DNA from: Ostreococcus lucimarinus
Lineage: Eukaryota
Assembly (NCBI GenBank): GCA_000092065.1
Contig: CP000583.1
Reading direction: 5' to 3' (one strand)
Length of the DNA stretch: 64,000 nt
Program-made: the position numbers and the translations under genes
In this document: positions 1-64,000 of the stretch, piece after piece
Position numbering within the stretch: the first letter of the stretch is position 1
Layout of the letters: each line of letters starts with the position of its first letter
Notes under the pieces: generated by a model
Databases searched by the model: none
Seen by the model: the letters and a program-made list of their open reading frames with translations, nothing else
Told to the model about the DNA's origin: nothing

Positions 1-4
1 GAAA

Positions 5-400
5 TTGCCCGGGGAAATACTCGTCGGTCGACGACCGTTCGCCGACGCGTCCGCCGACGCGTCCGCCGACGCCGCCAACGATCAATACGGCTTTGACCCG
101 CTCGCCGTCGTTGACCCTCCACGAGCGTACGTCTTCAACGTCTGTGTCGCTCCCGAATTCCGCGGTCGCGGCGTCGCGGAAGCCATGCTGCGCGTCTCCT
201 ACGAATATCTCGCGTCTCGCACGCGCGCCGCAGTCGTCTACATTCACGTCGAGCGCGACAACGTCAGCGCTCGACGCGCGTACGAAAAGGCTCTCTTTTC
301 CATCGAGAGCGAAGAGACGCCCGAGCAGAGCGCGAGCGCCGCGCACGAGCCTCGTATTTTGCTTTATCGAGAAATTCTTCGCGCGTCGCCGGCCTTTTGA
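5..400 (+). CDS. GNAT-family N-acetyltransferase, C-terminal fragment (5' end outside the window)
   Basis: The ORF runs to a stop at 398-400. It carries an acetyl-CoA-binding-like motif (RGRGVAEAML) and an ARRAYEKALF segment typical of the GNAT fold. No start is visible in the window. Confidence 0.5.
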   Translation: MPGEILVGRRPFADASADASADAANDQYGFDPLAVVDPPRAYVFNVCVAPEFRGRGVAEAMLRVSYEYLASRTRAAVVYIHVERDNVSARRAYEKALFSIESEETPEQSASAAHEPRILLYREILRASPAF

Positions 401-502
401 ACTTTCAACAAAGATCAGTTGTACAGTAATCAACCGTCTTCAGTACGGGCCTCGCCCCGTCGCCAACGTCAACGCGCGCGCGGTCATCAACAAGAACACG
501 CG

Positions 503-1948
503 ATGGCGTCGATCGTGCTCGCCGGCGGTGCCGCCGCGGCGTTCTTCCGCCAGAAATCCGCGACGAAATCGCAGCTTCAAAAGACAACGGTCGAGAATGA
601 GTCACAGCTTCAAAGCGTCCATCGCGCGCGTATCGACGCCGAATGCGAGCTGGCGCTCATGCACGCCGATCACGAAGACGCGCTTGAACGACTGCGCGAA
701 AGCGAGGCGCGAAACGCGGCGTTGGAGGCGACGATGAAAGAAATGGAGGAACAGCGGGAGGAGACGGCGTCAAAGGTGAGGGCGGAAAAGGAACAGACGA
801 CGAAACTTCGGTTCTCGTTGACTGTGGCGAATGGCAGGATCGATAAAATGCGCAAAGAAATCGATGCGCTCAAGGCGCAGGTAAGCGAGGAGGGGAAACT
901 GTCGGAGGAGAACAAGAGATGGAAAGAACGGGCCAACGACGCGTCGAAAAATTTGGAGACGACGAGGGGACGCGTGCGAGAATTGACGGAGAAGAATGGG
1001 GAGTTGGTGAAGGAAAAGTCTAGGCTTGAGCACGAGCTCGAGGATGCTAAGGCAGCAGAAGCAAAACTGGAGACGGCGCGTGCGCGAAACGTGCAGTTGA
1101 CCGATGAATTAGACGCGAAAAACCAAGAGTTGGCGGCGTCGACGCACGCTTTGCAAGATGCAGAGGTCAATTTTCGACACTCTGAGAGTCAAAATGTGCA
1201 ACTTGGGATCGAGGTAGAAGAATTGCGGGAACAAGTCGTCGCACTACGCGCTCAGGAGATTGAGTTACAAGCCGAGTTGAAAGAAATGCTCGAAACATTG
1301 AATATGGTGACGTCGAACGAGCACGAGGGCGAATTCGAGCGTGACGCCGAAATCGAGCGCATGATGGAAAAGTTGAGCACCCCATTGTCCGAACGTCAGG
1401 GATCTAGTATGGCGAGTGGTGATATGCAGGATGTCAGCCATAGAATGGCCGTCCTGATGGCTCGTGTGGAGGAGTGCAAGACGCCGATGGGGATTTCGAA
1501 AGCGATAGCGGAGTTGGATGAGCTTCAAGTCAAGCTCAGAGATCTTCAGGGCGACGAAGACGACGATATCACTCCGCCTGACGTGAACTCACCGGACGCT
1601 TGGCCCATCTCGCCTCCGTCACCGGTGACGACGTCTAAGAATATATCCGATGATGTTAACATCGGTGAGATTACGCCGCAACGAAGCTTGAACTTTGGCG
1701 ACACGTCGCCGCCGCCGAAAGGCGCCGCGAAGGATGGCATGTGCGCCAAGTGTGGTATCATCCCCATCGCCGATGGATGCGACGGTCGATGCGCGCTCTG
1801 CCATGCGAAAAAGCAGCAAAAGCTCGCGGCTTCGCCGTTACAGCGTGGACTTGCAAGTTTCAAGGACGTCTTTTCGCCATCGAAAGAGAAGAAGGAGGCA
1901 CGATCGGCCAAAAAGTCGAACAAGAAGAAAGGGAACAAGAAAAAGTAA
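503..1948 (+). CDS. Coiled-coil protein with a C-terminal Cys cluster (CAKCG...CDGRCALC, zinc-ribbon-like)
   Basis: ATG at 503 (MASIVLAGG...). Long E/K/L/A-rich heptad-like region. Amino-acid composition is protein-like, unlike the overlapping frames. Confidence 0.5.
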   Translation: MASIVLAGGAAAAFFRQKSATKSQLQKTTVENESQLQSVHRARIDAECELALMHADHEDALERLRESEARNAALEATMKEMEEQREETASKVRAEKEQTTKLRFSLTVANGRIDKMRKEIDALKAQVSEEGKLSEENKRWKERANDASKNLETTRGRVRELTEKNGELVKEKSRLEHELEDAKAAEAKLETARARNVQLTDELDAKNQELAASTHALQDAEVNFRHSESQNVQLGIEVEELREQVVALRAQEIELQAELKEMLETLNMVTSNEHEGEFERDAEIERMMEKLSTPLSERQGSSMASGDMQDVSHRMAVLMARVEECKTPMGISKAIAELDELQVKLRDLQGDEDDDITPPDVNSPDAWPISPPSPVTTSKNISDDVNIGEITPQRSLNFGDTSPPPKGAAKDGMCAKCGIIPIADGCDGRCALCHAKKQQKLAASPLQRGLASFKDVFSPSKEKKEARSAKKSNKKKGNKKK

Positions 1949-1977
1949 TTCGCCTATTACACATGTATGACAACGGT

Positions 1978-3483
1978 TTACATCCTTGCCTTGGTAAATA
2001 TCCCTTTCCCGTCGAACACTATCGTCGTCGCGCGTCTTCGGTCTTGCGCTATCCGCACTACTTCCATCGCGGCGATGTGTGCGGCGACGCATGCCGTCGG
2101 CGCATCCATCCATCCCGAGAACGACGCACGCGTGAAGGACGAGTCCGTGCCTAAACTAACATCCACAACACACGACCCCACGCTCGTACTCGTAATTTCA
2201 ATCACCGGCGATTTTGCCTCTCTCGCGATGGCGACGACTTCGTCGGCGGTGGCGCACGCGCTCGTGCGAACCACGACGTGGTATTTGTACGTTTCTAAAT
2301 CGTCTAAATCGCACAAATCGTCCACTTCGCAATCGTGCCGAACAAATACTTTTGATCCACTCGCCCCGTATACGTCGACGTTACCGACGCCGACGGCGGC
2401 AAGCGCGCAGACGCACGCGTCGTTGGCGAGCGAATCCGTGCCGCACACAAGGACGTACATCTCTCTCAGCTTAGCCAACGCGTCGTAGCCGAAAAGTCTC
2501 GCGTGCGTATCGAAACCCTCGCGATCTTCATCACCGTCTTGCGCGTCGTCGGCATCCATATCGTCCCCGCTCGGAAGAACCTCGTATTCGGACGCGTTTG
2601 GCACGGGCGCCGAGTCCGGGCGATCGGGCTTGTACAACGCCAACGCCTCCACGTGCGTCCACTGATCGCACTCGCGCGCCACTGCGACGGCTTCACTCGC
2701 GTCCAAATAACTCAATATCTTACTCGCCACGACCGCGGCGACGACGCCACACATAGACGCCGTCTCCGGCGCCTCGTCGTCGTCGCCGTTTCCCGGTAAT
2801 CCTTTCCTCGCGTCCGCGCCCGTGATCCCCAACAACGGCCGCGTCTCGGGATGCGCGCGCAAAAACTCCCAGTGCAATCCCGCCTGCAGTTCATCTCGCG
2901 CCTTCGCGTCCGCGTCCACGCCCGCGCTCGACGCCGACAGCGTCTCCGCTAATCTCGCCGTGGCGCTCGGTCGCAGCGCCTCGTACAGCGTCTTCGATCC
3001 CGCGCCGCCGTCGTCCACGAACACGCACCCCGTCGTCGCCTTCGCGCGCGCGTACGCGAACGCGCACGCGCCACTCCCGAGTCCATCTTCGTCGTCGCGC
3101 GTTCTTTTGCACGCCTCCGCCATCGCGCACGCCTCGCTCAGCGCCCCCGGGCCGCACCGCACCGCGACGCGCGCCCCCGTCGCTCGAATCTTCTCCGCGT
3201 CCAGCGCTTCGCCCTCGCGCGTCGACGCGCGCGCGACCGCTCGACCGCACTGACGGTTGATGGTATCAACGCACGCGTCGACGGCGTCGCGTCCGACGTC
3301 GCCGAGCGTCAGCGCGCCGCCCGCGGCTTCGTAATCTTCGAGCGAGACGCGGCGATGTCGACGCGCGTCGTGCACGATGAGCGTCGGATGCGTCGGCGCG
3401 CGGGCGAGAACCGCGGCGAGGGCGTGCGCGACGCCGCCGGACACGCCGGAGATGAGGATCGCGGGAGGATCGGCGCCGCGCAT
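1978..3483 (-). CDS. Hypothetical protein with a possible Rossmann/E1-like segment (VLVCGTDSLANDACVCALAAVGVGNVDVYG)
   Basis: 501-aa ORF with diverse composition (D/E/Y/K present), unlike the GC-artefact ORFs. No confident family assignment. Confidence 0.4.
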   Translation of the reverse strand: MRGADPPAILISGVSGGVAHALAAVLARAPTHPTLIVHDARRHRRVSLEDYEAAGGALTLGDVGRDAVDACVDTINRQCGRAVARASTREGEALDAEKIRATGARVAVRCGPGALSEACAMAEACKRTRDDEDGLGSGACAFAYARAKATTGCVFVDDGGAGSKTLYEALRPSATARLAETLSASSAGVDADAKARDELQAGLHWEFLRAHPETRPLLGITGADARKGLPGNGDDDEAPETASMCGVVAAVVASKILSYLDASEAVAVARECDQWTHVEALALYKPDRPDSAPVPNASEYEVLPSGDDMDADDAQDGDEDREGFDTHARLFGYDALAKLREMYVLVCGTDSLANDACVCALAAVGVGNVDVYGASGSKVFVRHDCEVDDLCDLDDLETYKYHVVVRTSACATADEVVAIAREAKSPVIEITSTSVGSCVVDVSLGTDSSFTRASFSGWMDAPTACVAAHIAAMEVVRIAQDRRRATTIVFDGKGIFTKARM

Positions 3484-3621: not shown

Positions 3622-5235
3622 TTAATCTTGTTCGAGCGCGGCGAGGCGCCCGAGGAGCTTGGCGTTTTCGAGGGAGAGGGCGTCTTTTTGCGCCTCGCAC
3701 TCGACGATTTCGTTTTGCAGCGCCGCGCACTCGGCGACGATGGTGTCTTTGACGGCCATCATTTCGCGCCCGATTGCGGCCAATTTTTCAAGGTTTCGAA
3801 TCTTTGCTTCTTGTTTGGATAAGGTGGCTTCAAAGTCCGCCTTCATCGCTTCCACGTCCTCGATGGGTGCGCCGACGGAGTTTAACAGCGTTTCCTCGAC
3901 GACGCCTTCGAGCGCGGAGATTTTAGCCTCCAAAGCGACGCGTTCTTGTGAGTGCGATTCGATCGCCGAGCGAAGCGCTTCGTCCCCCGCTAACTCCGCG
4001 CTTCGCACCGCTTCTGCGAGTTCGTCGACTCGGGATTCCAACTCTTCGACGGCGGCGGCGGCGGTTCGCGCCTCATCGCGCGCTCGCTCGAGATCGTCCC
4101 GCAACGTCTGCACGACGCTTTCACTGGAATCGAGCGTTGACTGTGCTTCACGATATGAGGCTTCGAGACGCTCGATTTGCGCGGTCGAAGCCGTCGCATT
4201 TTGCTCGTACTCTTGGCGCTCAGACTTTCGCCGTTGGGCTTCGTCGGAGAGACGGCTCTCCAACTCATCGCGAGCCGACTCTAGCGATGCGATGCGCTCG
4301 AGAAGTTCTACACCTCGATTGACTTCTATGCTGTGCGCGGATTGCGCGTGCGTCAACTTCTCTTCCACCTCGCGAAGTTGTTCGGCCATCTTTTGCTCCT
4401 TCTCCGCGAGCGCGCCCTCAAGTCCCGCCCTGACGCGTCCGAGCTCGTTCGCTTCGGCTCGCGCCTCCTCGAGCGCTACGTTCGATTGGTCCACGGCATC
4501 GACTGCAAGACTCAAGCGTGACTCTATGTCGCTCATCGCCTCAATCGTCTCCTTTTCGAATTCCTCCAGCGTGAGCTCGAGTAAAGTGGCTCGGCGTTCG
4601 GCGGCGGCGCGAGCCGAATCGCCCGATCCGCTCGCGCTCAGAGCTCCTATGCGTTCAGCTGCGCGCAATCGCTCACGCATTTCGCTTTCTAACGCCTCAA
4701 GTCGCGCCTCCTCCTTCTCCGTCGCGCGCTGTAATTCCTCTTCAAGCTCTCTATTCTTCGCCTCACTCTCCTCGAGCATGTGTTGCATCGCGTCCGTCAC
4801 CGCCTGCGCCGTGTCCCGCTCGCGATCGATTCCAGCCTCCTTCGCCGTCTCCAACTCACGCTCGAACGCCGCGCGCATCGCAATCATCTCATGCGCGTGT
4901 GCGTCCTCCATTTCCGTCACCGCGCTCGCATCGCCCGACCTCGACGCCCACCCCTCCTCGAGCGCCGTCAACTCCTCGCGCAGGTGCGCGTTTTCGTTGT
5001 GCGCGTCCCGCAGCTCTTCCCGCAGCCGCGCCACGATCGTCGCGTTCGGCGCCGCGCCGCCGTTCGCGTCGACGTCGTCGGGCGACACGCCGCTGTCTCC
5101 GCGCACGACCGCGCGCGCCGTCGTCGTCGTCGTCGTCGCGCGTCGGGACCGCCTTATCCGCATCGCGCGCGCGCGCGCGTCGTCGCGTTCGCGGCGCGCC
5201 GTCGCGCTCGGCGCGACGGCGAGCGCGCGCGACAT
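3622..5235 (-). CDS. Long coiled-coil protein (A/E/R/L-rich, SMC/myosin-tail-like heptads)
   Basis: 537-aa ORF with charged-heptad composition (ELEEELQRATEKEEARLEALESEM...). The overlapping plus-strand ORF 3659..5305 is S/A/R junk. Confidence 0.5.
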   Translation of the reverse strand: MSRALAVAPSATARRERDDARARAMRIRRSRRATTTTTTARAVVRGDSGVSPDDVDANGGAAPNATIVARLREELRDAHNENAHLREELTALEEGWASRSGDASAVTEMEDAHAHEMIAMRAAFERELETAKEAGIDRERDTAQAVTDAMQHMLEESEAKNRELEEELQRATEKEEARLEALESEMRERLRAAERIGALSASGSGDSARAAAERRATLLELTLEEFEKETIEAMSDIESRLSLAVDAVDQSNVALEEARAEANELGRVRAGLEGALAEKEQKMAEQLREVEEKLTHAQSAHSIEVNRGVELLERIASLESARDELESRLSDEAQRRKSERQEYEQNATASTAQIERLEASYREAQSTLDSSESVVQTLRDDLERARDEARTAAAAVEELESRVDELAEAVRSAELAGDEALRSAIESHSQERVALEAKISALEGVVEETLLNSVGAPIEDVEAMKADFEATLSKQEAKIRNLEKLAAIGREMMAVKDTIVAECAALQNEIVECEAQKDALSLENAKLLGRLAALEQD

Positions 5236-5301: not shown

Positions 5302-6252
5302 ATGACGCGCTTCGCGGCGGTCGAGCTCGCGCGCGGCGCGCGTTTCCGCGTCGCGTCTCGCGAGCGCGGCGCGCGACTCCGCCGTCGCGCGACGCCGACG
5401 CGCCTGACGCCGTTCCCGCGCGACTACGCCGAGCTCGAGCGACAGGCGCGCGAGAGCGTGAAACGATGCGCGAAAGATGGCGTCGAGCTCGTCGAGCTTC
5501 AGTTTCCACCCGGTGGATTGGAACTCGCGAGCGGGGATTTAGAGGGAAACGTCGAGTGTAATCTCACCACCGAGCGGCTGAGAGGGATATGCGATGCGTT
5601 CGTGGCGAACGGGACGGCGAGCACGACGCGCGTGCTGTTTCCGGATCCCACGGAGATGCGGTTGGCGACGACGGGGGCGAACGCGGCGCCGGACGGGATT
5701 CGAGCGCCGGAACAGAGCGACACGCGCGGGTGGTTCGCGGATTGGAAAGGAACGCTAGATTACGTGGATGATCCTAGTTTCATGTCGGTGAGTGGATTCG
5801 ATAAGATATTCGGTGGGAAGAAGAATATTTCAGAGCGGATGAGAGGAGACGAGACGGCGTACGTCGTCGCGTATCCGAGCGCAAATATTTCCGAGTTGGC
5901 GAATACGCGAGATTTGTACGAAGGGTGCGTGCGAGGAACGGGAAAGTCGCTCGTGGTGTGTAACGGCGAGTTGGAACGCACGCGGTCGAATTATTATCCG
6001 CCGTTTTGGAACGCCGGGGAGATGGGACCGTTGCGATCGTTTTGTCGAAAATTTGAAGGCGCGTACGTAATCTATAATTTCAAGGGATCCAATCCCGCCG
6101 TGCTGTTTCGCGTGTACCCGGAGCCGTGGCAGGTATTTCGTCGACGCAAGGGCGGCCGCGACGGGTTGGAGACGCTCGAGCGTGTGTGCACGTTTGAGAA
6201 GTTTGAATCCGTGAAATCCGTGGCGCTGGACGTCTTGCCGCGATACCCGTGA
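5302..6252 (+). CDS. Hypothetical protein (possibly organellar)
   Basis: ATG at 5302 (MTRFAAVELARG...), divergent from the coiled-coil gene that starts at 5235. The downstream 300 aa have normal composition (W/Y/F/N/K present). The upstream part of the ORF-track entry is an R-rich artefact. Confidence 0.5.
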   Translation: MTRFAAVELARGARFRVASRERGARLRRRATPTRLTPFPRDYAELERQARESVKRCAKDGVELVELQFPPGGLELASGDLEGNVECNLTTERLRGICDAFVANGTASTTRVLFPDPTEMRLATTGANAAPDGIRAPEQSDTRGWFADWKGTLDYVDDPSFMSVSGFDKIFGGKKNISERMRGDETAYVVAYPSANISELANTRDLYEGCVRGTGKSLVVCNGELERTRSNYYPPFWNAGEMGPLRSFCRKFEGAYVIYNFKGSNPAVLFRVYPEPWQVFRRRKGGRDGLETLERVCTFEKFESVKSVALDVLPRYP

Positions 6253-12330: not shown

Positions 12331-12482
12331 GTGAGTATTAGCGAGGGACAGTGTAATATGAGTAGATGCTGAAACAGAGTAAAACTTGAATTGAAATCAT
12401 CAAGAGGCGCCGCGTTTTCGTGAGTCGTAAAACAAAGTAAAAGTAATCATCAGGGCGGCTTTGGGCTGCTTAAAGCGTCAAT

Positions 12483-12881: not shown

Positions 12882-13032
12882 TGAAAATGTAAAGTTCGTT
12901 TTCTTTCGCGACGCGCGTCCGTGCGTTGAAGTGAAGTGACTACGAACGAGGGGGCTTCACATGGCATTAAACGAGGCACATGAGTGGCTGTGATTCTCTC
13001 GGCGAGTGTGAGAGCCTCGTTGGGCTTGTTGA

Positions 13033-13045
13033 TTTATAAATCGTC
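13033..13045. promoter_or_regulatory. Palindromic TATA-like element (TTTATAAAT) about 155 bp upstream of the Cys-rich protein start
   Basis: Sequence gatttataaatcg lies in an otherwise GC-rich genome. It is positioned upstream of the minus-strand ATG at 12881. Confidence 0.25.
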
Positions 13046-13197
13046 GCCGATCGCCGCGTGACGTCAACAGACGTGGGCTTTAACGATGCAATCCGAGGTC
13101 CGAGAAGCGTTGCAGATCGCGAGAGGATCGACATCGACAGTAAACCATGTGTTATTCGGTATACAAAAATGCCAAGCGCGGGCTATGATGTAAAGCT

Positions 13198-17150: not shown

Positions 17151-17165
17151 CGCCGCGACGTCGCG

Positions 17166-46103: not shown

Positions 46104-46168
46104 CTCGAATCGCGAACGCTTTGCGTGTCTAAATTCCACCGCTATCTACTAATGTTCTACTGCCTGTA

Positions 46169-55440: not shown

Positions 55441-56508
55441 TCACGAAGGCACGGGCACCGCGCCTGGGACGCGCTCTGCGTCTTCGTCTCCGGGCGCCAA
55501 CGCCTCGTCGATCTCGCGATCGCTCACGGGCGGCGGCGATTTGCCCTTGGCGACGTCATATCCTTTGCGGCGCTCGCGCGGCGCGGGACCGGTGGATACG
55601 ATGGAGTACGCGGCGTTTAAGACGTCGTATCGCGACGTCGTGAGCGTGCGGTTGGCGAACACGGCCGCACTGAGTCGTTTGGTGAAATCACCGCCGGGCA
55701 TTTTATCGCCCTCGTCGATGTCGATGTCTTGCATGCGAACGTCGAACGCGTTGTCCACCAAAGTCAACGCGTAGTCGGCTTGCACGACTTTACTCGTCGG
55801 CCCGTTTCCTCGCAATTCTCCCGTGCGCACGATGGTGAACGTCCATCCATCCGCGACACCGCCCGGTTTCACCGTTTTCGCCGCGCGGCGGCGTATCATG
55901 TCCTCGCACGCGACGCAATCGTCCAACGGCGCGCCGCCTCGAAACGTCTTGCGATTCATATACTTGAACGGATCGACGTCTCGCCGTTCGACGCCGATTC
56001 TCGACATCAACACCACGCGCCGCAATCTCGGGAACCGACCGCCGTCGATCGCCTCACAAAACGTCTCCACGCACGCCTTGAGCTTCTTCGAGCTCTCCTC
56101 CGCGAATATCACGCACGTCGTTCGCTCGCGCGTCGCCGTCTCGCCTCCCAGCGTCTCCCCGAGCTCCGCCGTCTCCACCCCTTGTTCGTCGAGCATCTCC
56201 AGCGTCTTCGCGTGCGGGTACACCAGCGTCGTCGATCGCACGTCTCGCGGATTTCGCACGCCCTCGAACGCCTCGCGCGGCAGCGCCGCGACGACGCGCA
56301 CGTCGCTCGACTTTTCGTTTCGCTTCAGCTCGACCGCCGACGTTTGCGCCAGCCGTTCGAGCGCGCCGGTGACGACGACGACGTCGCGCGCGGCGTCGAG
56401 CGCGCGCGGCGAGACGCGCGCGCGTCGCGGCGTCGAGCGCGCGTCCCGCGCGCGTCGCGACGACGCGCGCGGCGTCGCGGTCGACGGCGCGCGGCGCACC
56501 GACGCCAT
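55441..56508 (-). CDS. Hypothetical organelle-targeted protein with a possible NAD(P)-binding Rossmann N-terminus
   Basis: ATG at 56508 (MASVRRAPSTATPRASSRRARDARSTPRRA presequence), then DVVVVTGALERLAQ. The rest has normal composition. No family assigned. Confidence 0.45.
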   Translation of the reverse strand: MASVRRAPSTATPRASSRRARDARSTPRRARVSPRALDAARDVVVVTGALERLAQTSAVELKRNEKSSDVRVVAALPREAFEGVRNPRDVRSTTLVYPHAKTLEMLDEQGVETAELGETLGGETATRERTTCVIFAEESSKKLKACVETFCEAIDGGRFPRLRRVVLMSRIGVERRDVDPFKYMNRKTFRGGAPLDDCVACEDMIRRRAAKTVKPGGVADGWTFTIVRTGELRGNGPTSKVVQADYALTLVDNAFDVRMQDIDIDEGDKMPGGDFTKRLSAAVFANRTLTTSRYDVLNAAYSIVSTGPAPRERRKGYDVAKGKSPPPVSDREIDEALAPGDEDAERVPGAVPVPS

Positions 56509-56519
56509 CGCGCGACGCA

Positions 56520-57845
56520 ATGGCGACGCGCGTCGCCGGCGCACCGCGCCCGCGCGTCGTCGCGCGCGCGTCGCGACGCGCGACCGTCGCGCGTTCGAGC
56601 GACGGCGCGTTCGACTGCGCGCACTGGCCGCGGTGCGCGGGATGCGTCGACGTCGACGCGCCGCTGCGACCCGAGGCGGAGGCGCGCGCGCGCGCGTACT
56701 TTGCGTCGCTGGACGCGCGCGCGGGCGAGACGGGCGAGACGCGCGAGACGCACGAGACGTATCGCGGACGCGCGACGCGATGGCGCGTCAAGGCGAAGCT
56801 CGCGGCGCGCGCGCACGAGGGCGAGACGCGACTGGGGCTGTTCGCGCGAGGCTCGCACGCGCTGGAGCCCATCGACGACGCGAGCGGGTGCGCGGTGTCG
56901 GCGATCGCGGTCGAAAGAGCGATGGCGCTGGTGCGAGAGGTGTGCGCGTCGATGGATGTGAAAGGGTACGACGAAACGACGGGGAACGGGGAGCTGCGGT
57001 ACGCGCAAATCGTGGCGCAGACGAGAACGGCGGGACAGTGGGACGCGGCGAAGGACGAAGACGCGCGAGCGGCGATTTCGTTGGTGTGGAACGCGCGGAA
57101 GATGACGCCGCGCGCGATGGCGGTGTGCGAGGAAATCGCGCGAAGGGGTGGAGATTTCGTGCACGGGACGTGGGTGAACGCGCAAGACGCGCGAAATAAC
57201 GTGATTTTTAACAACGACGGGTGGCACCACGCGACGGGCGAGCGAGAAACGCACTCGTACACGCCCAACGGTGCCAAGGTGTTTTATCTGCCGGGAAGCT
57301 TCATGCAAGCCAACGCGGAGGCGTACGGAGAGTTGCTCAAGCGCATGCCGCGACACGTGCCGAAGAACGCGCGCGTCGTCGAGATGTACGCCGGCGTCGG
57401 CGCCATTGGTTTTTCGCTTCTGACGAACGACGCGCTCGGCGTGAAGAGCTTGCGATGCGTGGAATCGTCGAGCGCGGTCGCCGAAGCGTGGGAACGCACG
57501 CGTGGCGAGTTACCAGAAGATTTGCGAGGTCGAGCAAGTTTGCAAGTCGAAAAGGCGGAGCGCATCGCCGTCGAATCGACGAAGGATTGCGACGTTCTCA
57601 TCGTCGACCCGCCTCGAAAGGGACTCGACGCCAAGCTGCGCGCCGTGCTCACCGACGTCGATGGTCTGAGCGATGACTTGCAAACTTTGCTTTACGTGTC
57701 GTGCGGATTTGAATCATTCATGCGCGACTCGGACGAGTTATTGGCGAGCGGCGTGTGGCAAATCCGTCATCACGAGAGCTTCGTGTTCTTCCCAGGCACG
57801 AATCACATCGAAATCTTTGCCGTGTTTTCGCGCACGCCTTATTAG
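56520..57845 (+). CDS. RumA/TrmA-family RNA (uracil-C5)-methyltransferase with an N-terminal Cys cluster. Probably organellar.
   Basis: N-terminal CAHWPRCAGC Fe-S-type Cys motif. SAM-MTase core VVEMYAGVGAIGFSL...VLIVDPPRKGLD...LLYVSCGFESFMRDSDEL...FFPGTNHIE matches the TrmA-family motifs DPPR.G, YVSCNP..L.RD and FP.T.H.E. Starts 11 bp from the divergent upstream gene. Confidence 0.75.
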   Translation: MATRVAGAPRPRVVARASRRATVARSSDGAFDCAHWPRCAGCVDVDAPLRPEAEARARAYFASLDARAGETGETRETHETYRGRATRWRVKAKLAARAHEGETRLGLFARGSHALEPIDDASGCAVSAIAVERAMALVREVCASMDVKGYDETTGNGELRYAQIVAQTRTAGQWDAAKDEDARAAISLVWNARKMTPRAMAVCEEIARRGGDFVHGTWVNAQDARNNVIFNNDGWHHATGERETHSYTPNGAKVFYLPGSFMQANAEAYGELLKRMPRHVPKNARVVEMYAGVGAIGFSLLTNDALGVKSLRCVESSSAVAEAWERTRGELPEDLRGRASLQVEKAERIAVESTKDCDVLIVDPPRKGLDAKLRAVLTDVDGLSDDLQTLLYVSCGFESFMRDSDELLASGVWQIRHHESFVFFPGTNHIEIFAVFSRTPY

Positions 57846-57905: not shown

Positions 57906-59153
57906 TTACTCCTCCTTCCTTGGGGGAAGAATGAATATGTTTGAGTGCATCCCGAGACATCCCGTGACTTGCGCGCAAAGCGTCGCGCTTCGGTGAAGCA
58001 ACAAAAATAACGCGGCGCCGAGGAGGATGCCGCCGATGAACATGTTGCCCGCGGGCACAAATGTCGTCATGATCATGATGAACCCGCTCAACCAGTTGAA
58101 CAGCGGCCAATCGGGGTCTGAAACGCGCAGGCGCATGATGCTCATCTCGGCTTCGGCGAAGAGAAGCATGCTCGTGGCGTGCGCCAACGCCAAGTTTGGC
58201 GCAAAATACAAGCACACGCCGTGAAACAACTCGTTGACGATGCAAAACAACGCAATACGCGTCGGATTACGATGCTTTGGCCAGTGTGGTGGCACTTCTT
58301 TTGCCGTGACGGTGCGATAAAACGTCATCGCGCGAGATCGCACGCCGAACAACGCCCCGCCGTCGACGAGCAGGCGCACCACGCCTCGCTCGCCGATGAT
58401 GGGTAGAGTGATCGTAAACGCATTCATCGCGTCGCTCCCAACGAATCCGAAGACAATCATACTTATTTGCAACAGGATCTGCATCTCTTGCACGTCAAAA
58501 GCGGTGTTCACAGGTAACAATCCCGTGTACGTGCTCGAAACCGTGTCGACGGCGAAAAAAATCCGGCTCGACGTCATCATCATCACCGCGAACGCTCTCG
58601 CCGCGGGCGTCGCGATACCGACGGCCAATAAATCAACGAAAATAATCCCGTACACGCACGTGCAAATCGCATCGCATCCGTGATCGACGACTTCTCCCAA
58701 CGGCGACCCGCTCTTCGTTCGTCTCGCTTGCTTACCGTCGATGCCGTCCGCCGTCTGATACGCAAACATTAAAACAGCGCTCACCGCGTACATCCACGAC
58801 GGCGCGGTGTGCGCCAGCACTGGCGTGTGCGTCCAATACAACGCGTACGTCACCATCACCAACATTAATCCGCCGAACGTCAACGCGTTCGGCGCCACCC
58901 ACAGCGGACACCACCGTTCGACGACGTACGTCCACCATCGCTCCAAAAACAGCTTCTCAAACGACGTCGACGGCGGTGATGTATACTTGTACGAGTGCAC
59001 CTGCGCGCACGTGCGCTCGGACGCGCCCACGTGCGCGCGTTTCGCTTCGCGCTCATTTTTTTGGGCGTAGCACACCAAGTCCTCGTTCGACCCATCGTGT
59101 CCACCGCGCGTCAGCACATCGAGGCGCGCGCGTCGAACGGCGGCGATCGGCAT
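57906..59153 (-). CDS. CDP-alcohol phosphotransferase (choline/ethanolaminephosphotransferase, CPT1/EPT1-like)
   Basis: Catalytic motif DGIDGKQARRTKSGSPLGEVVDHGCDAI matches D-G-x2-A-R-x8-G-x3-D-x3-D. N-terminal WTYVVERWCPLWVAPNALTFGG and multiple TM helices. Confidence 0.85.
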   Translation of the reverse strand: MPIAAVRRARLDVLTRGGHDGSNEDLVCYAQKNEREAKRAHVGASERTCAQVHSYKYTSPPSTSFEKLFLERWWTYVVERWCPLWVAPNALTFGGLMLVMVTYALYWTHTPVLAHTAPSWMYAVSAVLMFAYQTADGIDGKQARRTKSGSPLGEVVDHGCDAICTCVYGIIFVDLLAVGIATPAARAFAVMMMTSSRIFFAVDTVSSTYTGLLPVNTAFDVQEMQILLQISMIVFGFVGSDAMNAFTITLPIIGERGVVRLLVDGGALFGVRSRAMTFYRTVTAKEVPPHWPKHRNPTRIALFCIVNELFHGVCLYFAPNLALAHATSMLLFAEAEMSIMRLRVSDPDWPLFNWLSGFIMIMTTFVPAGNMFIGGILLGAALFLLLHRSATLCAQVTGCLGMHSNIFILPPRKEE

Positions 59154-59317
59154 CGCGGCGGCTTTCGATCTTCGCGTCCGCGTCGCTTCGGGTCCGCGCG
59201 CGCGACGTCGGCGTCGTCTTCTGCCGTCGCGTTCGGCGGGACTCTCGTCGTTCCAGTGTCAACGAGATCTCATCGCGCGCCCTTCGTCCTCTGCGCGCGA
59301 ATCCGGGACGCGGCGCG

Positions 59318-61231
59318 ATGGCAGGCGGTGTTGCGGTGGCGTCGGGAGAGATCCGGCACGGCGATAGGGTCTTCAGTGGGAACTCTGGCCCCGCGCAGCG
59401 CGAACAACCCATAAACAAAGAACTCATCGCGCACTTCAAAAGCAAGGGAGACAGTGTGTCCTGGGGCATCGCTGCAAGCATAGAGAACTACGAGGAGGAT
59501 ACGAAGAGGCCAGTGTTGTCGGGCGCATGCATCGCGTCGCTCTACGACCAAGAGACCGAGCGCGAGTTGGCAGAGGAGGTGGAGAACAGAATTGAGCGGG
59601 TGCTAAGCGACGACGCAGCCTTGTTGAAAATACGTCGATATTTGAAGACCTTCCACGCGGACGAGCGCGAATGGGATGTGAGAACGTGTGCAGCGGCGGC
59701 TCGAGGGGGCAACTTGGAGTGTTTGAAATATCTGCACGAGCACGGGTGCGCGTGGGATAAGAGTGCGTGTGAAGCGGCGGCTCAAGGTGACCACTTGGAG
59801 TGTTTGAAATATCTGCATGCGAACGGGTGCACATGCGATGAGAGTGCGTGTTTAGCAGCGGCTGAAGGTGGTCACTTGGAGTGTTTGAAATATCTGCACG
59901 AGCACGGGTACCCATGGAGTGAGTGGGTGAGTTTAGCAGCGGCCGAAGGCGGTCACTTGGAGTGTTTGAAATATCTGCACGAGCACGGGTGCGTATGGAA
60001 TAAGAAAACGTGTCGAGCAGCGGCTCGAGGTGGCGACTTGGAGTGTTTGAAATATCTGCACGAGCACGGGTGCGCGTGGGATGAGAGTGCGTGTGAAGCG
60101 GCGGCTCGATGTGGTCATTTGGAGTGTTTGAAATATCTGCATGAGCACGGGTGCCCGTGCGATGAGAGTGCGTGTGAAGCGGCGGCTAGCTGTGGCGACT
60201 TGGAGTTTTTGAAAGACCTGCACGAGCACGGGTGCCCATGGGATGAGAGTGCGTGTGAAGCGGCGGCTCTAGGTGGTCACTTGGAGTGTTTGAAATATCT
60301 GCACGAGCACGGGTGCGTATGGAATAAGAAAACGTGTCGAGCAGCGGCTCGAGGTGGCGACTTGGAGTGTTTGAAATATCTGCACGAGCACGGGTGCGCG
60401 TGGGATAAGAGTGCGTGTTCTGCAGCGGCTGGACGCGGTCACTTGGAGTGTTTGAAATATCTGCACGAGCACGGGTACCCATGGAGTGAGTGGGTGAGTT
60501 TAGCAGCGGCCGAAGGCGGTCACTTGGAGTGTTTGAAATATCTGCACGAGCACGGGTGCGTATGGAATAAGAAAACGTGTCGAGCAGCGGCTCGAGGTGG
60601 CGACTTGGAGTGTTTGAAATATCTGCACGAGCACGGGTGCCCGTGCGATGAGAGTGCGTGTGAAGCGGCGGCTAGCTGTGGCGACTTGGAGTTTTTGAAA
60701 GACCTGCACGAGCACGGGTGCCCATGGGATGAGAGTGCGTGTGAAGCGGCGGCTCTAGGTGGTCACTTGGAGTGTTTGAAATATCTGCACGAGCACGGGT
60801 GCGTATGGAATAAGAAAACGTGTCGAGCAGCGGCTCGAGGTGGCGACTTGGAGTGTTTGAAATATCTGCACGAGCACGGGTGCCCGTGCGATGAGAGTGC
60901 GTGTGAAGCGGCGGCTAGCTGTGGCGACTTGGAGTGTTTGAAATATCTGCGCGAGCACGGGTGCCCGTGCGATGAGAGTGCGTGTGAAGCGGCGGCTCTA
61001 GGTGGTCACTTGGAGTTTTTGAAAGACCTGCATGAGCACGGGTGCGCATGGGATAAGAGTGCGTGTTCTGCAGCGGCTCGAGGTGGTCACTCGGAGTGCT
61101 TGAAGTACTTGCACACGCACGGGTGCCCCGGGAATAAGCGTGCGTCTGAAGCGGCGGCTGGAGGTGACGTCATGGAGTGTTTGAGTTTGAAGTACTTGCA
61201 TAGATCGCTCAAACGAAAGATTTACAGGTAG
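59318..61231 (+). CDS. Ankyrin-like repeat protein: about 18 tandem 27-aa units of HLECLKYLHEHGC(P/A)WD(E/K)SAC.AAA.GG
   Basis: ATG at 59318. The first 58 codons of the ORF-track entry overlap the CPT gene and were excluded. The repeat shares the AA..GHLE.LK.L...G core with ankyrin repeats but is 27 aa rather than 33 aa. Confidence 0.75.
   Translation: MAGGVAVASGEIRHGDRVFSGNSGPAQREQPINKELIAHFKSKGDSVSWGIAASIENYEEDTKRPVLSGACIASLYDQETERELAEEVENRIERVLSDDAALLKIRRYLKTFHADEREWDVRTCAAAARGGNLECLKYLHEHGCAWDKSACEAAAQGDHLECLKYLHANGCTCDESACLAAAEGGHLECLKYLHEHGYPWSEWVSLAAAEGGHLECLKYLHEHGCVWNKKTCRAAARGGDLECLKYLHEHGCAWDESACEAAARCGHLECLKYLHEHGCPCDESACEAAASCGDLEFLKDLHEHGCPWDESACEAAALGGHLECLKYLHEHGCVWNKKTCRAAARGGDLECLKYLHEHGCAWDKSACSAAAGRGHLECLKYLHEHGYPWSEWVSLAAAEGGHLECLKYLHEHGCVWNKKTCRAAARGGDLECLKYLHEHGCPCDESACEAAASCGDLEFLKDLHEHGCPWDESACEAAALGGHLECLKYLHEHGCVWNKKTCRAAARGGDLECLKYLHEHGCPCDESACEAAASCGDLECLKYLREHGCPCDESACEAAALGGHLEFLKDLHEHGCAWDKSACSAAARGGHSECLKYLHTHGCPGNKRASEAAAGGDVMECLSLKYLHRSLKRKIYR
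59690..61150. repeat. Tandem array of near-identical 81-bp coding repeats with duplicated higher-order blocks of about 250-490 bp
   Basis: cacttggagtgtttgaaatatctgcacgagcacgggtgc recurs every 81 bp. The block 59880..60080 repeats at 60470..60660. The block 60148..60400 repeats at 60640..60890, almost base for base. Confidence 0.85.
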
Positions 61232-61254
61232 CGGAAAAATTACGCGAATTGAAA

Positions 61255-62580
61255 TCAAATACCTACGAAATCGGCGTACGCCGGACAGAGCCTACGACAG
61301 TGGCGAAATAAACGCATCGCTTCCATGGCGTCGCCCGAGGTCTCCGCGTCCACGGCGCGCTTGTGCAGGGCGTACGCCTCGGCGCCGACGGCGTCGGCGA
61401 ACGCCGGCGGCTCGCGAGCGTACATGACGTCGGTGCGAATGATGAATTTCACCGCGCCCTCGCCCACGGGCGCGCCCTCGTGCGGAATGTCTTGTCGAAA
61501 CACCAGAGCAGTGCCTCGCGCGCACGGCGCGGCGTCGGCGATCCATTCATCCGGCCAACGGTATCGATCGTCCTCGTCGCGCACGAATTTCGACGGCTCA
61601 AAGTCGCTCGGCGGCGCGAACATCGACGTCTCCCCACCTCGCGCGCAATCGTTCAGGTACACCAAGACGCTATAAAACGAACGCGTATTGAAATCTTCGA
61701 TCGTCGCCCCGTCGGTGTGCGGTGAAAAGTGCCCGCGTCCAGAGTATCGATTAAACAACAAGTGTTCGTTCACGCCTCGCGCCACCCATCGTCCGCGCGC
61801 CCCCGCGCCGTGCGTCTCATCCTCCTCAATCGTGATCTCCGGCGTCGCGTGCGGTTTCAATCGCGCCCACAGCGCTTCCGCGACCGTCTTCGACATCACC
61901 TCCACCGTATCCGCGTTCCTGAACGATTTTCTATTCCTCGCCTCCGCGTCCTCGTGCCAAAAGCTCAACCGTCCCGACCGCCGCGCGGCGTCCACCAGCC
62001 TTTCGCACTCCGTCGCCGTCAGCACGTCCCGCGCGACGAACGCATCGAGCGGGCTCGCGCACCTTCGCGCGCTCGTCGTCGCTTCGTCACCGCGTCGCTC
62101 GACCGCGTCGTCGAACGGTTTCGCGTCTTCGGCGCACGCCTTCTCCACGGGCGTCACCGCGCTCTTATCGACGTCCACGAACGCGCGCGACATCGCCTCG
62201 ACGACGGCGTCGACGACGGTCGCGTCGCCGCCGCCGTCGTCGCCGCCGCGCGCGTCGACGCTCGACCGTTCGGTCGACCGTTCGCGGCGCGGCGCGGCGA
62301 GCTGTGCGGCACTGTCGAGCGCGATGGAACGCGTCGCGCGCGCGTCGTCGCGCGCGGCGACGGTCGGGGCGTCGCGTGCGGGGACGGGGAACGCGCGCGC
62401 GACGACGGCGTCGCGCGGCGCGCGCGCGACGACGGCGCGGCGCGCGCCGGCGGCGGCGTTTCTTTCGTCGGTGTCTCGAAAGTGTCGTCGCGGAAGGACG
62501 ACGACGACGGGAGCGCTGGCGATTCCGGACACCGCGTTCACGGTGGCGACGATGGCGGTGATGCCGATGTACGCGCTCAT
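61255..62580 (-). CDS. Prolyl 4-hydroxylase-like 2OG-Fe(II) oxygenase. The start is uncertain: ATG at 62580 or internal ATG at 62193.
   Basis: Catalytic core LFNRYSGRGHFSPHTDG (HxD) ...FYSVLVYLND...GGETSMFAP...VFRQDIPHEGAPVGEGAVKFIIRTDVMY carries the second His and the basic residue. The N-terminal 130 codons are A/R/V-rich and overlap the divergent ABA4 start. Confidence 0.65.
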   Translation of the reverse strand: MSAYIGITAIVATVNAVSGIASAPVVVVLPRRHFRDTDERNAAAGARRAVVARAPRDAVVARAFPVPARDAPTVAARDDARATRSIALDSAAQLAAPRRERSTERSSVDARGGDDGGGDATVVDAVVEAMSRAFVDVDKSAVTPVEKACAEDAKPFDDAVERRGDEATTSARRCASPLDAFVARDVLTATECERLVDAARRSGRLSFWHEDAEARNRKSFRNADTVEVMSKTVAEALWARLKPHATPEITIEEDETHGAGARGRWVARGVNEHLLFNRYSGRGHFSPHTDGATIEDFNTRSFYSVLVYLNDCARGGETSMFAPPSDFEPSKFVRDEDDRYRWPDEWIADAAPCARGTALVFRQDIPHEGAPVGEGAVKFIIRTDVMYAREPPAFADAVGAEAYALHKRAVDAETSGDAMEAMRLFRHCRRLCPAYADFVGI

Positions 62581-63016
62581 GATCGCGAGCCCGCGGTCGA
62601 AGCGCGTGCTCGCGATGGTGGAGTCGAAGGCGTTGTTTTGGGTGCTCGGAGCGTGTTATCTGTGCGCGGCGGGGGCGTCGTTGGCCTCGGCGCACGTGTT
62701 CGACGCGGCGAGAGCGGTGCTGAATGATCGTTCAGCGCCTTTGGTGACGAAATTCGTGACGCTGGTGAGCGAATTCATGGCGACGTCGGAGACGGCGGCG
62801 AGCGCGTGGGTACACCTGTTGTCGTTGGATTTCTTCGTGGCGAGATTCGTGTACTTGGATTCGGCCAAGTATAGCTCGAGCGCGGGGGATTTGGTGGCGC
62901 GGATACCGGTACGGCACTCACTTATTTTGTGCTGCATGTTCGGACCGCTCGGGCTGATTTCGCACGCGCTGACGCGGGCAATTTGGAACACGTACGTCGT
63001 CGTCGACGTGGTGTGA
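62325..63016 (+). CDS. ABA4: ABA4/DUF4281-family plastid membrane protein (neoxanthin-synthesis-related). The start is tentative.
   Basis: FTVATMAVMPMYALMIASP...SETAASAWVHLLSLDFFVARFVYLDSAKYS...VRHSLILCCMFGPLGLISHALTRAIW is collinear with Arabidopsis ABA4 (AVLPFYTLMVVAP...[24 protein letters not shown]...[26 protein letters not shown]). An R/A/S/T-rich transit-peptide-like leader begins at ATG 62325. Confidence 0.55.
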
Positions 63017-63091
63017 CGCGACGCCGACGACCGAAGATCGGAAGTTTGTCGAATGTATCAATACAAAAGAATGCTGTGATTTGAATTTGAA

Positions 63092-63991
63092 TTATTGCGC
63101 CTCCTCCGTAGCCTTGCGCTTGTTTGCCGCCGGCACGTTGATTTTGAACAACCCGGGATTAGCGGCGTGCGAGCTCTCGCCAGATTTGAAGTCTGCTTTC
63201 GCCGCCTTGACGAGCGCGTTGACGCGAGCGATGTAGTCGGGGATGCTAAACTTCTTCTTTGTGCTGTCGTACGCCATGTATCGAATCTTGCCGAAAACTT
63301 CGCGTTCTTTCCAACCTTGATCGTGCACGCCCACGATGGACCACATGCATCCGACGTAGCCGCTCGGATCGCGACCATCCAGCGAGTACGTGTCGTTCAA
63401 ATAAATTGCAAACTTCAACGCTTGCTCGGGCGACTCGGTCCACTCGAGAATCTTCTTCGCCCAATACATTCGACAAAAGCCGTGCATCTTACCTCCATAA
63501 CGCAACTCTCGCTGGGCGGCGTTCCACAGATCGTCGTGCGTCTTCGCCCGCTCGAGTTCTTCGAGCGAGTACAAGTACGGACGCTTGTCACTCGCATGCA
63601 GGCGAAGCGTGTCCTTGGCCCAGTCGTACTTTTGTCCCTCAATCTGATCGTACTTCGGGCTGTAGTAGCAAAAGTTGTCGGACAACTCTCGACGAACGAC
63701 GAGCTCTTCGAAGAACGACTCATACGCGGGCGGCGACGCCTTTCCGACGGCTTTCTTTGCCTCGAGCGCGCATCGCTGACCAGAAATCTGCCCAAAGTGC
63801 AGCCAAGGCGACAGCCCGCTCAGCGCCTGCGGCTTGGATGGATCGTTGCGCTTCTCGTACAACTTCATGCGTGAGTTCACAAAGTCGTCCAAAACAGCGT
63901 GCGCCGCGGTTTCGCCCGGGATCGCCCACGTCACTTCCGGCACCGCTTGCCCGCGCGACAGCGCCTCGGCGATGATGTCGTCCCACTTCAC
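63092..63991 (-). CDS. Class II CPD photolyase, C-terminal FAD-binding part. The N-terminal part lies beyond the window end.
   Basis: LSGLSPWLHFGQISGQRCALEAKK matches the class II signature LSPYLHFGQIS. Also WAKKILEWTESPEQALKFAIYLNDTYSLDGRDPSGYVGCMWSI. The ORF runs to the window edge. Confidence 0.85.
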   Translation of the reverse strand: MKWDDIIAEALSRGQAVPEVTWAIPGETAAHAVLDDFVNSRMKLYEKRNDPSKPQALSGLSPWLHFGQISGQRCALEAKKAVGKASPPAYESFFEELVVRRELSDNFCYYSPKYDQIEGQKYDWAKDTLRLHASDKRPYLYSLEELERAKTHDDLWNAAQRELRYGGKMHGFCRMYWAKKILEWTESPEQALKFAIYLNDTYSLDGRDPSGYVGCMWSIVGVHDQGWKEREVFGKIRYMAYDSTKKKFSIPDYIARVNALVKAAKADFKSGESSHAANPGLFKINVPAANKRKATEEAQ

Positions 63992-64000
63992 CGCGTCGAG

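Follow-up and report, generated by a model that had tools for sequence, protein, structure and literature searches.

Strand alternation and very short spacers between neighbouring genes in a 64-kb stretch of the Ostreococcus lucimarinus nuclear genome

Introduction

Ostreococcus, a minute and very abundant marine green alga, has the most compact genome among free-living eukaryotes, with intergenic regions of less than 200 bp, and genes that overlap on opposite strands are known from it: 8.9% of expressed sequence tag (EST) clusters were flagged as possibly merged and 26 paired overlapping loci were confirmed (PMC2367439). The mean EST cluster there is 1358 bp long and the mean longest open reading frame (ORF) 1059 bp, which amounts to about 300 nt of untranslated region (UTR) per transcript (PMC2367439, Table 4). 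For O. lucimarinus, 1482 cis-antisense pairs have been listed among 7805 transcripts (PMC3245084). In O. tauri vectors, a 'strong stop' that acts in both directions is taken from a short intergenic region between convergent genes, and roughly half of an intergenic region serves as promoter (PMC6562926). Here we analyse the orientation of neighbouring genes, and the spacers between them, in a stretch of 64,000 nt from O. lucimarinus (contig CP000583.1, assembly GCA_000092065.1), which we call the window. With a probability of roughly 0.8 we take it for an ordinary compact nuclear stretch in which opposite-strand neighbours share promoter and terminator spacers, and for a high-end example of a moderate lineage bias towards alternating strands. 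The phenomenon is already known; every element of it has been described before, and it is not a new class of system.

Several described systems resemble the window. The compact Mamiellophyceae genomes have the same gene density (one per about 1.7 kb), spacers in the range of tens to a few hundred nt, and transcripts that abut or overlap; nothing essential differs, and alternation (84%) and the number of pairs within 100 nt are higher in the window than one would expect from the published genome-wide totals. Ectocarpus and other brown algae likewise have an excess of opposite-strand neighbours, by the same binomial test, and their divergent spacers are shorter than tandem ones (bioRxiv 10.1101/2024.02.19.579948), which in the window depends on the choice of start codons. 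Theirs, though, are large, intron-rich genomes whose spacers measure hundreds to thousands of bp, whereas spacers in the window measure 10-600 nt and its genes are almost free of introns. A similar picture emerges for the CpG-island bidirectional promoters of mammals, which lie between head-to-head genes less than 1 kb apart and are GC- and CpG-rich without AT-rich elements (PMC4035068); the distances in the window, however, run from ATG to ATG rather than between transcription start sites (TSSs), and they go down to 11 nt, where the promoter would lie in coding DNA. The convergent overlapping pairs (COPs) of Micromonas (PMC4815162) are tail-to-tail genes with their 3′ ends at one short region, as in the window, but they belong mainly to a low-GC region, stand 0.9-1.3 kb from their upstream neighbours and have 3′ UTR overlap demonstrated by directional cDNA, whereas the window has normal GC, upstream spacers mostly below 200 nt, and an overlap deduced from gaps and TGTA positions. 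Tail-to-tail 3′ ends also share a short region in the bidirectional termination zones of yeast (bioRxiv 10.1101/2022.11.02.514956). Finally, extreme compaction runs transcripts into neighbouring genes in microsporidia and nucleomorphs, as summarised second-hand (Williams et al. 2005, cited in PMC2367439); these are parasitic or endosymbiotic relics with many multi-gene transcripts according to that summary, whereas Ostreococcus is free-living and nothing here suggests multi-gene transcripts.

Results

Gene map and strand alternation

The map was built from Pfam domains, a codon scan (a six-frame codon-usage log-likelihood trained on domain-bearing genes), exact look-ups of official models and the O. 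tauri annotation. It holds 38 complete or near-complete genes and a partial one at 1-400; an earlier, sequence-only reading of the same DNA had counted about 39. Some 90% of the window is coding, at about 1.7 kb per gene and about 160 nt of non-coding DNA per gene. The overall GC content of 61% (0.54-0.65 along the window) is that of a normal-GC nuclear chromosome stretch. Six ORF products are identical to proteins of O. lucimarinus CCE9901 (ABO95375, ABO95377, ABO95383, ABO95386, ABO95087 and ABO95090), and the eukaryotic and green-lineage proteins encoded include TFIIE beta, Nop53, Adap_comp_sub, Sec63, VPS13, a CemA-like protein, an ABA4-like protein, a VDE-like lipocalin and SBPase. A bacterial source was rejected in view of the exact Ostreococcus matches and of domains specific to eukaryotes (TFIIE, Nop53, AP mu, VPS13, Sec63). 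Pfam domains were found on 26 of the 38 genes, or 28 if PF06699 and PF00875 on orthologous calls are counted. Fourteen consecutive genes have the same order and strands in the O. tauri record CAID01000003.2, and proteins of the window recur on contigs in hundreds of assembly-collection blocks, mostly marine metagenomes.

The strands of the 38 genes read +--+-+-+---++-+-++-+-+-+-+-+-+--+-+-+-, with neighbours on opposite strands in 31 of 37 pairs (84%; binomial p = 2.1e-5 against 0.5). The longest strictly alternating run comprises 14 genes, from 27760 to 46169. The excess over random orientation is thus real, though the sequence-only reading went too far in calling the alternation near-perfect: six pairs within the window share a strand, and so does a seventh at the left edge (1-400 / 503-1948).

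We think it very improbable that the alternation and the tiny gaps were both created by ORF picking and by the choice of the most upstream ATGs in DNA of 61% GC. The window has 38 genes but 101 ORFs of 150 aa or more, and a listing of longest ORFs is unreliable in the window because stop codons are rare in GC-rich DNA. For instance, the 797-aa ORF 41202-43595(-), a candidate that we rejected as one gene, is a chimera in which the 3′ 473 codons are real (ABO95383) and the 5′ third is antisense to the BAH-PHD gene. First-ATG ORFs also overlap in two divergent pairs, by 175 and 257 nt, and three O. tauri starts align with internal Mets (see below). Against such an artefact, strands are backed by Pfam, by codon usage, by official models from both O. 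lucimarinus and O. tauri, and by GC ranges that stay apart between 5′-5′ and 3′-3′ spacers; correction of the map moved alternation up, from 29/36 to 31/37; the 11- and 48-nt head-to-head gaps survive all start-codon tests; and distances between stops do not depend on starts. As the window illustrates, compaction is easily exaggerated when ORFs in GC-rich DNA are read from their first ATG.

Head-to-head spacers and start codons

With first ATGs, the gaps of the 15 divergent pairs are 8, 11, 25, 48, 48, 57, 66, 81, 130, 136, 142, 160, 164, 622 and 641 nt (median 81 nt), all below 1 kb and eight of them at most 100 nt. With conservative starts, set by O. tauri annotation, Pfam domain boundaries and the onset of codon usage, they become 11, 48, 59, 66, 81, 130, 130, 142, 160, 164, 375, 405, 532, 641 and 1024 nt (median 142 nt); 14 of the 15 stay below 1 kb, five are at most 100 nt, and ten lie between 130 and 1024 nt. 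With ATGs standing in for 5′ ends, the positional part of the Trinklein-Adachi definition of a bidirectional gene pair (head-to-head, less than 1 kb apart) thus covers all 15 pairs for first ATGs and 14 for conservative starts. Most of the small ATG-ATG distances therefore arise because the most upstream ATG was taken in stop-poor DNA of 61% GC. Revised starts that widen the gaps, which the sequence-only reading had named as what would overturn it, were found for about half of the divergent pairs and not for the tightest robust one (56508/56520).

Comparison with O. tauri moves several starts inward. The TrmE start aligns with Met36 (17166 to 17271), the kinase start with Met61 (25702 to 25522), and the 301-aa orthologue of the gene at 21427-22659 aligns from Met123 (22659 to 22293); the recorded form of SBPase has 372 aa and starts at 39924 rather than 40272. 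The spacer between Nop53 and TrmE (17141-17165, GC 0.92) had been given as 15 bp between 17150 and 17166; the Nop53 CAT is in fact at 17138-17140, so the gap is 25 nt, and possibly 130 nt if TrmE starts at 17271 (79 nt in O. tauri). In the ABA4/2OG pair, one of the two with overlapping first-ATG ORFs, the ABA4 domain is complete only with a start at 62324, and 62193 is the likely start of the oxygenase.

The smallest first-ATG gap, at 35399/35408, had been put at 9 bp; there are 8 nt (35400-35407) between the CAT at 35397-35399 and the ATG at 35408. The minus-strand start is sound: in 33903-35399(-) the next Met comes only after a conserved block, LRTWESRAA, which supports Met1. The gene at 35408 may begin at Met1 or at Met18 (35459), which would give a gap of 59 nt; the O. 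tauri gap is 75 nt. Comparison of eight strains to choose between the two gave no discrimination, the DNA being identical, and the 352- and 369-aa calls of this gene thus differ only by choice of start. The models deposited for O. lucimarinus have 353 aa for 33903-35399(-) and 291 aa for 35408-36517(+), where the ORFs have 498 and 369 aa; the 494-aa O. tauri orthologue and the upstream conserved block suggest that the 353-aa model is truncated at the N-terminus.

Other short gaps are as they were first described, namely those of 66 nt (5235/5302), 48 nt (37145/37194; spacer 37146-37193, GC-rich) and 11 nt (56508/56520; spacer 56509-56519). The last is the tightest robust head-to-head pair. Both products equal official models. 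The VVVTGA Rossmann motif of 55441-56508(-) is preceded by no ATG other than Met1, and the same holds for a conserved Cys cluster in 56520-57845(+). Presequence length is similar in twelve orthologues, and the orthologous gap, again between ATG starts, measures 28 and 38 nt in two other Ostreococcus species (loci L012 and L013). Given 11 nt between robust starts, either the 5′ UTRs are at most 11 nt long or transcripts start inside the coding sequence (CDS) of the partner, and the two core promoters must overlap the partner gene. The earlier claim that core promoters generally do so holds for such tightest pairs, but the ten conservative gaps of 130-1024 nt leave room for two promoters.

At the other extreme, the divergent spacer between the kinase and carrier genes (25703-26324, up to 26546) is at least 622 nt long and scores as non-coding, as does the GC-rich 641-nt spacer upstream of 8568. 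The kinase/carrier spacer is unusually long in all four genera sampled, with 433 nt in O. tauri (L015 9568-10000), 307 nt in a Bathycoccus-like locus (L016 9694-10000) and 684 nt in a Micromonas-like one (L025 4744-5427); it may contain a conserved regulatory region, or else a small exon or RNA that has escaped annotation. Scans with tRNA and Rfam models for hidden RNA genes in the long spacers found nothing.

As a separate observation, six of the 17 copies of an E2F-like motif, GCGCGAAA/TTTCGCGC, fall in 5′-type spacers, which make up less than 10% of the window (7928-7935, 8310-8317, 15429-15436, 15603-15610, 18842-18849 and 25890-25897). We rejected GCGCGAAA as a promoter element, since it is not enriched window-wide (17 observed, 22 expected), and its concentration in 5′ spacers may be an effect of composition.

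Tail-to-tail and tandem spacers

The 16 convergent gaps between stop codons, which are independent of start choice, are 23, 29, 58, 60, 65, 71, 75, 75, 76, 76, 110, 138, 139, 152, 183 and 245 nt (median 75.5 nt; at most 76 nt in ten). This bears out the short distances first described: 23 nt at 61231/61255 (spacer 61232-61254, AT-rich and the shortest), 29 nt at 1948/1978 (spacer 1949-1977, in which each strand has TGTA) and 58-76 nt in eight other pairs. The two kinds of opposite-strand spacer also differ in composition, with GC of 0.35-0.53 in the 16 convergent and 0.56-0.92 in the 15 divergent ones (Mann-Whitney U = 0, p = 2e-6), and the absence of any overlap between the 5′-5′ and 3′-3′ ranges supports the strand assignments independently of how ORFs were called. 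We use GC per spacer here in place of a scan for AT-rich islands (GC < 0.44) as an independent marker of 3′ ends, which was dropped as too noisy on account of stretches inside CDSs.

The six tandem spacers have a median of 234 nt, are longer than the convergent ones (p = 0.005) and are visibly composite; for instance, the 109-nt spacer 27651-27759 has an AT-rich 3′ part followed by a GC-rich 5′ part. With first ATGs, though not with conservative starts (see below), they are also longer than the divergent spacers (p = 0.04), a comparison that involves only six tandem spacers. A much tighter tandem arrangement was seen in the left flank (L008 6743-6769), where a leucine-rich repeat (LRR) gene and then a CBS-domain gene, both on the minus strand, are 25 nt apart from stop to ATG, far closer than any tandem pair in the window. 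Either a start was called too far upstream there, or the pair is a candidate for read-through or polycistronic expression.

Within 70 nt after stop codons, TTGTA is found for 9 of 37 genes (0.87 expected), and pentamers of the TGTA type are among the most enriched, with TAATA ranking first. The density of TGTA in convergent spacers is five times that of the window, with 24 occurrences against 13.1 in composition-matched shuffles (P = 0.004). UGUAA is the polyadenylation signal of Chlamydomonas, and TGTA in the 3′-3′ spacers is by analogy likely to mark sites of cleavage. Where the spacer measures 23 or 29 nt, the TGTA signal, or else the point at which cleavage is expected, falls within the partner's stop codon or past it. 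At such distances the two transcripts would have to overlap at their 3′ ends or stop within the CDS of the partner; the earlier reading had claimed 3′ overlap for convergent genes at large. Taking the distance used for cis-natural antisense transcripts in PlantNATsDB (opposite strands, overlapping or at most 100 nt apart), the CDS gaps of 10 of the 16 convergent and 5-8 of the 15 divergent pairs qualify, and these counts are lower bounds because transcripts extend beyond CDSs.

Conservation and the ankyrin polymorphism

Gene order and orientation, which the sequence-only reading had suggested comparing in relatives, are conserved among O. lucimarinus, O. tauri and two further Ostreococcus lineages, whereas the identity of partners is not conserved outside the genus: in a Micromonas-like locus (L014) the methyltransferase has different neighbours on both sides. 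Two blocks do persist in the Bathycoccus-like locus. The convergent pair of a glyoxalase-II-like (HAGH) gene and SBPase (37194-38729 / 38806-40272) is kept, inverted as a block, at L016 16944-19873, as is the four-gene stretch kinase(-)/carrier(+)/unknown(+)/PIG-F(-). Some adjacencies have thus survived although synteny between the genera was generally lost.

These patterns bear on whether selection keeps specific divergent partners together for co-regulation through a shared bidirectional promoter. The conserved order and orientation within Ostreococcus would fit such functional units, as would the adjacencies kept in Bathycoccus (kinase/carrier and the HAGH/SBPase convergent pair). However, 4,060-4,697 adjacent pairs are conserved between Ostreococcus species (PMC3446292), so that conservation within the genus is what general synteny predicts. 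The partners are moreover unrelated (Nop53 and TrmE; an NAD-binding protein and an RNA methyltransferase; an adenylate-kinase-like and a glyoxalase-II-like protein), and those of the methyltransferase have changed in L014. We consider functional units of this kind unlikely; since partners are functionally unrelated and not conserved in Micromonas, economy of space is favoured over co-regulated pairs.

The ankyrin gene (58979-61254 region) is polymorphic for presence: the window and L006 have a full copy, L010 has a 5′ remnant (window 59670-61242 missing) and L011 none (59233-61242 missing, 53 unrelated nt instead), and the two other Ostreococcus species (L012, L013) lack the gene as well. The deletion alleles of L010 and L011 share their right breakpoint, 12 nt after the ankyrin stop codon, and the gene contains internal repeats that recur at roughly 81-nt multiples, with a prominent spacing of 243 nt. 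It lies on the plus strand (59318-61231); its two neighbours, both on the minus strand, directly follow one another in other O. lucimarinus-type strains and in other species. Two of the alternations in the window are thus recent, owing to insertion of the ankyrin gene into an ancestrally tandem arrangement at 57.9-62.6 kb, and the 23-nt convergent gap at 61231/61255 exists only because of that insertion.

Discussion

Alternation in the lineage and in the window

The window together with its flanks alternates in 38 of 50 pairs (p = 1.5e-4). A search for paralogues of the mitochondrial carrier gene, meant to reach unlinked Ostreococcus loci, yielded orthologues only. For comparison beyond the genus we used orthologous loci with largely different neighbours, which alternate in 6 of 8 pairs (Micromonas-like L014, GC 0.69), 9 of 11 (Bathycoccus-like L016, GC 0.47) and 4 of 7 (Micromonas-like L025), or 19 of 26 in total. 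All pairs outside the window give 26/39 (67%; binomial p about 0.03 against 0.5, a rough estimate; p = 0.025 for a subset of 22/32). In a simulated genome of 7,800 genes, alternation of 58-67% yields 1-17 disjoint stretches with at least 31 switches in 37 pairs, and 3-14 runs of at least 13 switches. An excess of the window over this lineage background of about 58-67% is thus not clear, and we regard the window as a high-end sample of a moderate lineage-wide bias rather than as a special locus.

A number of observations weigh against this reading. The flanks alternate in only 7 of 13 pairs (3/7 at the left edge and 4/6 at the right). In O. tauri, 3884 of about 7,725 genes are in head-to-head pairs under 1 kb, and 2288 pairs have been counted (PMC4035068, PMC3245084), which implies alternation of 50-59%; the lineage bias may then be weak and the window partly a fluctuation. 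With conservative starts the tandem spacers, only six in number, are not significantly longer than the divergent ones (p = 0.23). TGTA is present on both strands in only 5 of the 16 convergent spacers, and one has none. Finally, TSSs, poly(A) sites, bidirectional firing, co-expression and antisense overlap are all things that we infer from sequence.

The flanks, and the roughly 50% of O. tauri genes in head-to-head pairs, could also mean that the genome is unbiased and that the window is extreme by chance alone. At 50% alternation, however, the same simulation expects only 0.04 stretches like the window per genome, the loci from other genera reach 19/26, and alternation has been described as typical of compact genomes (bioRxiv 10.1101/2024.02.19.579948); pure chance is an improbable explanation. 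We give equally little credence to the opposite extreme, which the words 'obligatory' and 'default architecture' of the sequence-only reading amount to, namely a genome-wide rule under which a single bidirectional promoter serves both genes of each divergent pair. It can point to 31/37 alternating pairs, to 14 of 15 conservative divergent gaps below 1 kb with 5-8 at most 100 nt, to convergent gaps of at most 76 nt in 10 of 16, and to an 11-nt pair that stays tight in other Ostreococcus species. Yet there are six or, with the edge, seven tandem pairs, the flanks and the other loci together fall to 26/39, conservative starts leave ten divergent gaps of 130-1024 nt, no more than 50-59% follows from the published O. 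tauri count, and two alternations come from a strain-specific gene in what was ancestrally a tandem arrangement.

A model for the three spacer types

In the reading that we prefer, streamlining would have cut non-coding DNA to about 160 nt per gene, and what remains would be three types of spacer. The 5′-5′ spacers, very GC- and CpG-rich and without AT-rich stretches, would most likely each form one shared nucleosome-free promoter region with divergent transcription. In the tightest pairs, the promoter or 5′ UTR of each gene would extend into the first codons of its partner, which encode low-complexity, Arg/Ala-rich N-terminal presequences. The 3′-3′ spacers, short, AT-rich and enriched in TGTA, would most likely be shared two-way regions of cleavage, polyadenylation and termination, so that the mRNA 3′ ends of convergent genes would abut or overlap. 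Tandem spacers, which are about three times longer, would have to accommodate a terminator followed by a promoter. Compact genomes would become enriched in alternation because opposite-strand neighbours can share such modules and avoid read-through into a downstream promoter, a selective reason that we find plausible. Since mRNAs have about 300 nt of UTR by the EST data and genes only about 160 nt of non-coding DNA, transcripts must commonly run into neighbouring units.

What retains interest is the head-to-head pair conserved at 11-38 nt, in which promoter or 5′ UTR function, to go by the start codons, must lie in presequence-coding DNA or else the mRNAs must be nearly leaderless. A further reading, tentative and in our view more doubtful than not, takes two things together: that in the tightest pairs the DNA for the low-complexity N-terminal targeting presequences doubles as core promoter, 5′ UTR or both for the partner, and that alternation is well above 50-59%. 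The former would entail mRNAs that are almost leaderless (5′ UTR of at most 11 nt) or 5′ ends that overlap in antisense inside CDSs; were alternation much above 50-59%, the sharing of modules would be a real organising principle and not a mild bias. The window may serve in any case as a calibration of how far a free-living eukaryote shrinks its regulatory DNA, at about 160 nt of non-coding DNA per gene. Once TSSs have been mapped, the 11-nt pair would be a natural model for two RNA polymerase II promoters within or on coding sequence, and the AT-rich 3′-3′ spacers could supply two-way terminators of the sort that Ostreococcus vectors already employ on an empirical basis.

Genes of the window

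At the left edge lies the 3′ part of an acetyltransferase gene (1-400, +), cut by the window edge and supported by synteny with L008 and by the codon scan (+ frame, 211-301). In L008, which is the left flank on the same chromosome, this Acetyltransf_1 gene encodes 325 aa and ends 102 nt before the orthologue of 503-1948. The latter gene (+; 481 aa, no Pfam domain, from the codon scan) is in tandem with it across the same 102-nt spacer, and its product was called on contigs in 824 assembly-collection blocks, mostly marine metagenomes. Convergent with it is a 501-aa gene without a Pfam domain (1978-3483, -; codon scan), followed in tandem at 138 nt by a 537-aa gene (3622-5235, -; codon scan). 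The latter is head-to-head, across 66 nt, with a DUF1995 gene (5302-6252, +; PF09353), whose Met1 is needed because the domain starts at residue 39. Next are a CemA-like gene (6391-7926, -; PF03040), a gene of the adaptor-complex medium-subunit family (Adap_comp_sub, 8568-10250, +; PF00928), a 317-aa gene (10326-11279, -; codon scan and orthologous calls) and the TFIIE beta gene (11440-12330, +; PF02186), whose 296-aa product is also called in other strains. A small VDE-lipocalin-like gene of 132 aa (12483-12881, -) matches ABO95375 exactly and PF07137 partially, and it is followed by a 705-aa gene of weak codon bias (13198-15315, -; codon scan).

The Nop53 gene (15863-17140, -) is an exact match to ABO95377, and its start is well supported, profile position 2 of Nop53 matching at residue 5. 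Its partner is the MnmE/TrmE GTPase gene (17166-18794, +; start 17166 or 17271; Pfam and codon scan), with a DnaJ/Sec63 gene (19202-21355, +; Pfam) in tandem after 407 nt. A gene of unknown function (21427-22659, -; codon scan) has its likely start near 22293. The ribosomal protein L12e (uL11) gene (22796-23326, +; Pfam) likely starts at 22826, where the product begins with MPPKFDP, an N-terminus typical of eukaryotic L12. The protein kinase gene (23510-25702, -; Pfam, likely start 25522) and the mitochondrial carrier gene (26325-27650, +; Pfam and O. tauri annotation) flank the long divergent spacer described above; beyond them are a 240-aa gene (27760-28482, +) with an O. tauri orthologue annotated on the same strand, the PIG-F gene (28541-29218, -; PF06699 on orthologous calls) and a helicase gene of the Strawberry-notch type (29300-33763, +; Pfam).

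The 498-aa gene at 33903-35399 (-), with Met1 supported, is a DUF4440 gene, and its neighbour of unknown function (35408-36517, +; O. tauri annotation and look-ups) encodes 369, 352 or 291 aa depending on the start. An AAA_18/adenylate-kinase-like gene (36594-37145, -; Pfam) has a robust Met1, its N-terminus being conserved with O. tauri from residue 1, and faces the hydroxyacylglutathione-hydrolase-like gene (37194-38729, +; Pfam). The sedoheptulose/fructose bisphosphatase (SBPase) gene (38806-40272, -; Pfam and codon scan) likely starts at 39924, giving the 372-aa form. Exact matches identify a 253-aa gene (40330-41091, +; ABO95087), where the + frame wins the codon scan, and a 473-aa gene (41202-42623, -; ABO95383 and codon scan). 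The BAH-PHD gene (42741-43577, +; Pfam BAH and PHD, codon scan) likely starts at 42999 and is followed by an Armadillo-repeat gene (43823-45280, -; Pfam), a 226-aa gene (45423-46103, +; look-up and codon scan) and the VPS13 gene of 3039 aa (46169-55288, -; Pfam).

The pair about the 11-nt spacer consists of an NAD(P)-binding protein gene (55441-56508, -; exact match ABO95386, Met1 required for the Rossmann motif) and a TrmA/RlmD-like RNA methyltransferase gene (56520-57845, +; exact match ABO95090, Pfam, orthologue alignment). To the right lie a CDP-alcohol phosphatidyltransferase gene (57906-59153, -; Pfam), the strain-polymorphic ankyrin-repeat gene (59318-61231, +; Pfam, first ATG 58979), the 2OG-Fe(II) oxygenase gene (61255-62580, -; Pfam and codon scan, likely start 62193) and the ABA4-like gene (62324-63016, +), in which positions 1-127 of the Pfam profile are matched only with the 62324 start. 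A DNA photolyase gene (63092-64000, -; PF00875 on orthologous calls) runs off the window.

Two further observations concern composition and the databases. The regions 12000-16000 and 46169-55288 have lower GC (0.54-0.57) and weak codon bias, with third-position GC (GC3) of 0.63 in the gene at 13198-15315 and 0.62 in VPS13 compared to 0.75-0.80 in most neighbours, which could reflect low expression. The 132-aa VDE-like Ostreococcus protein is also found under MDA9599345.1, an accession of the type given to prokaryotic metagenome-assembled genomes, and other proteins of the window are listed under the whole-genome shotgun (WGS) prefixes MDSW01 and MDSX01, which suggests that Ostreococcus contigs sit within bins deposited as prokaryotic.

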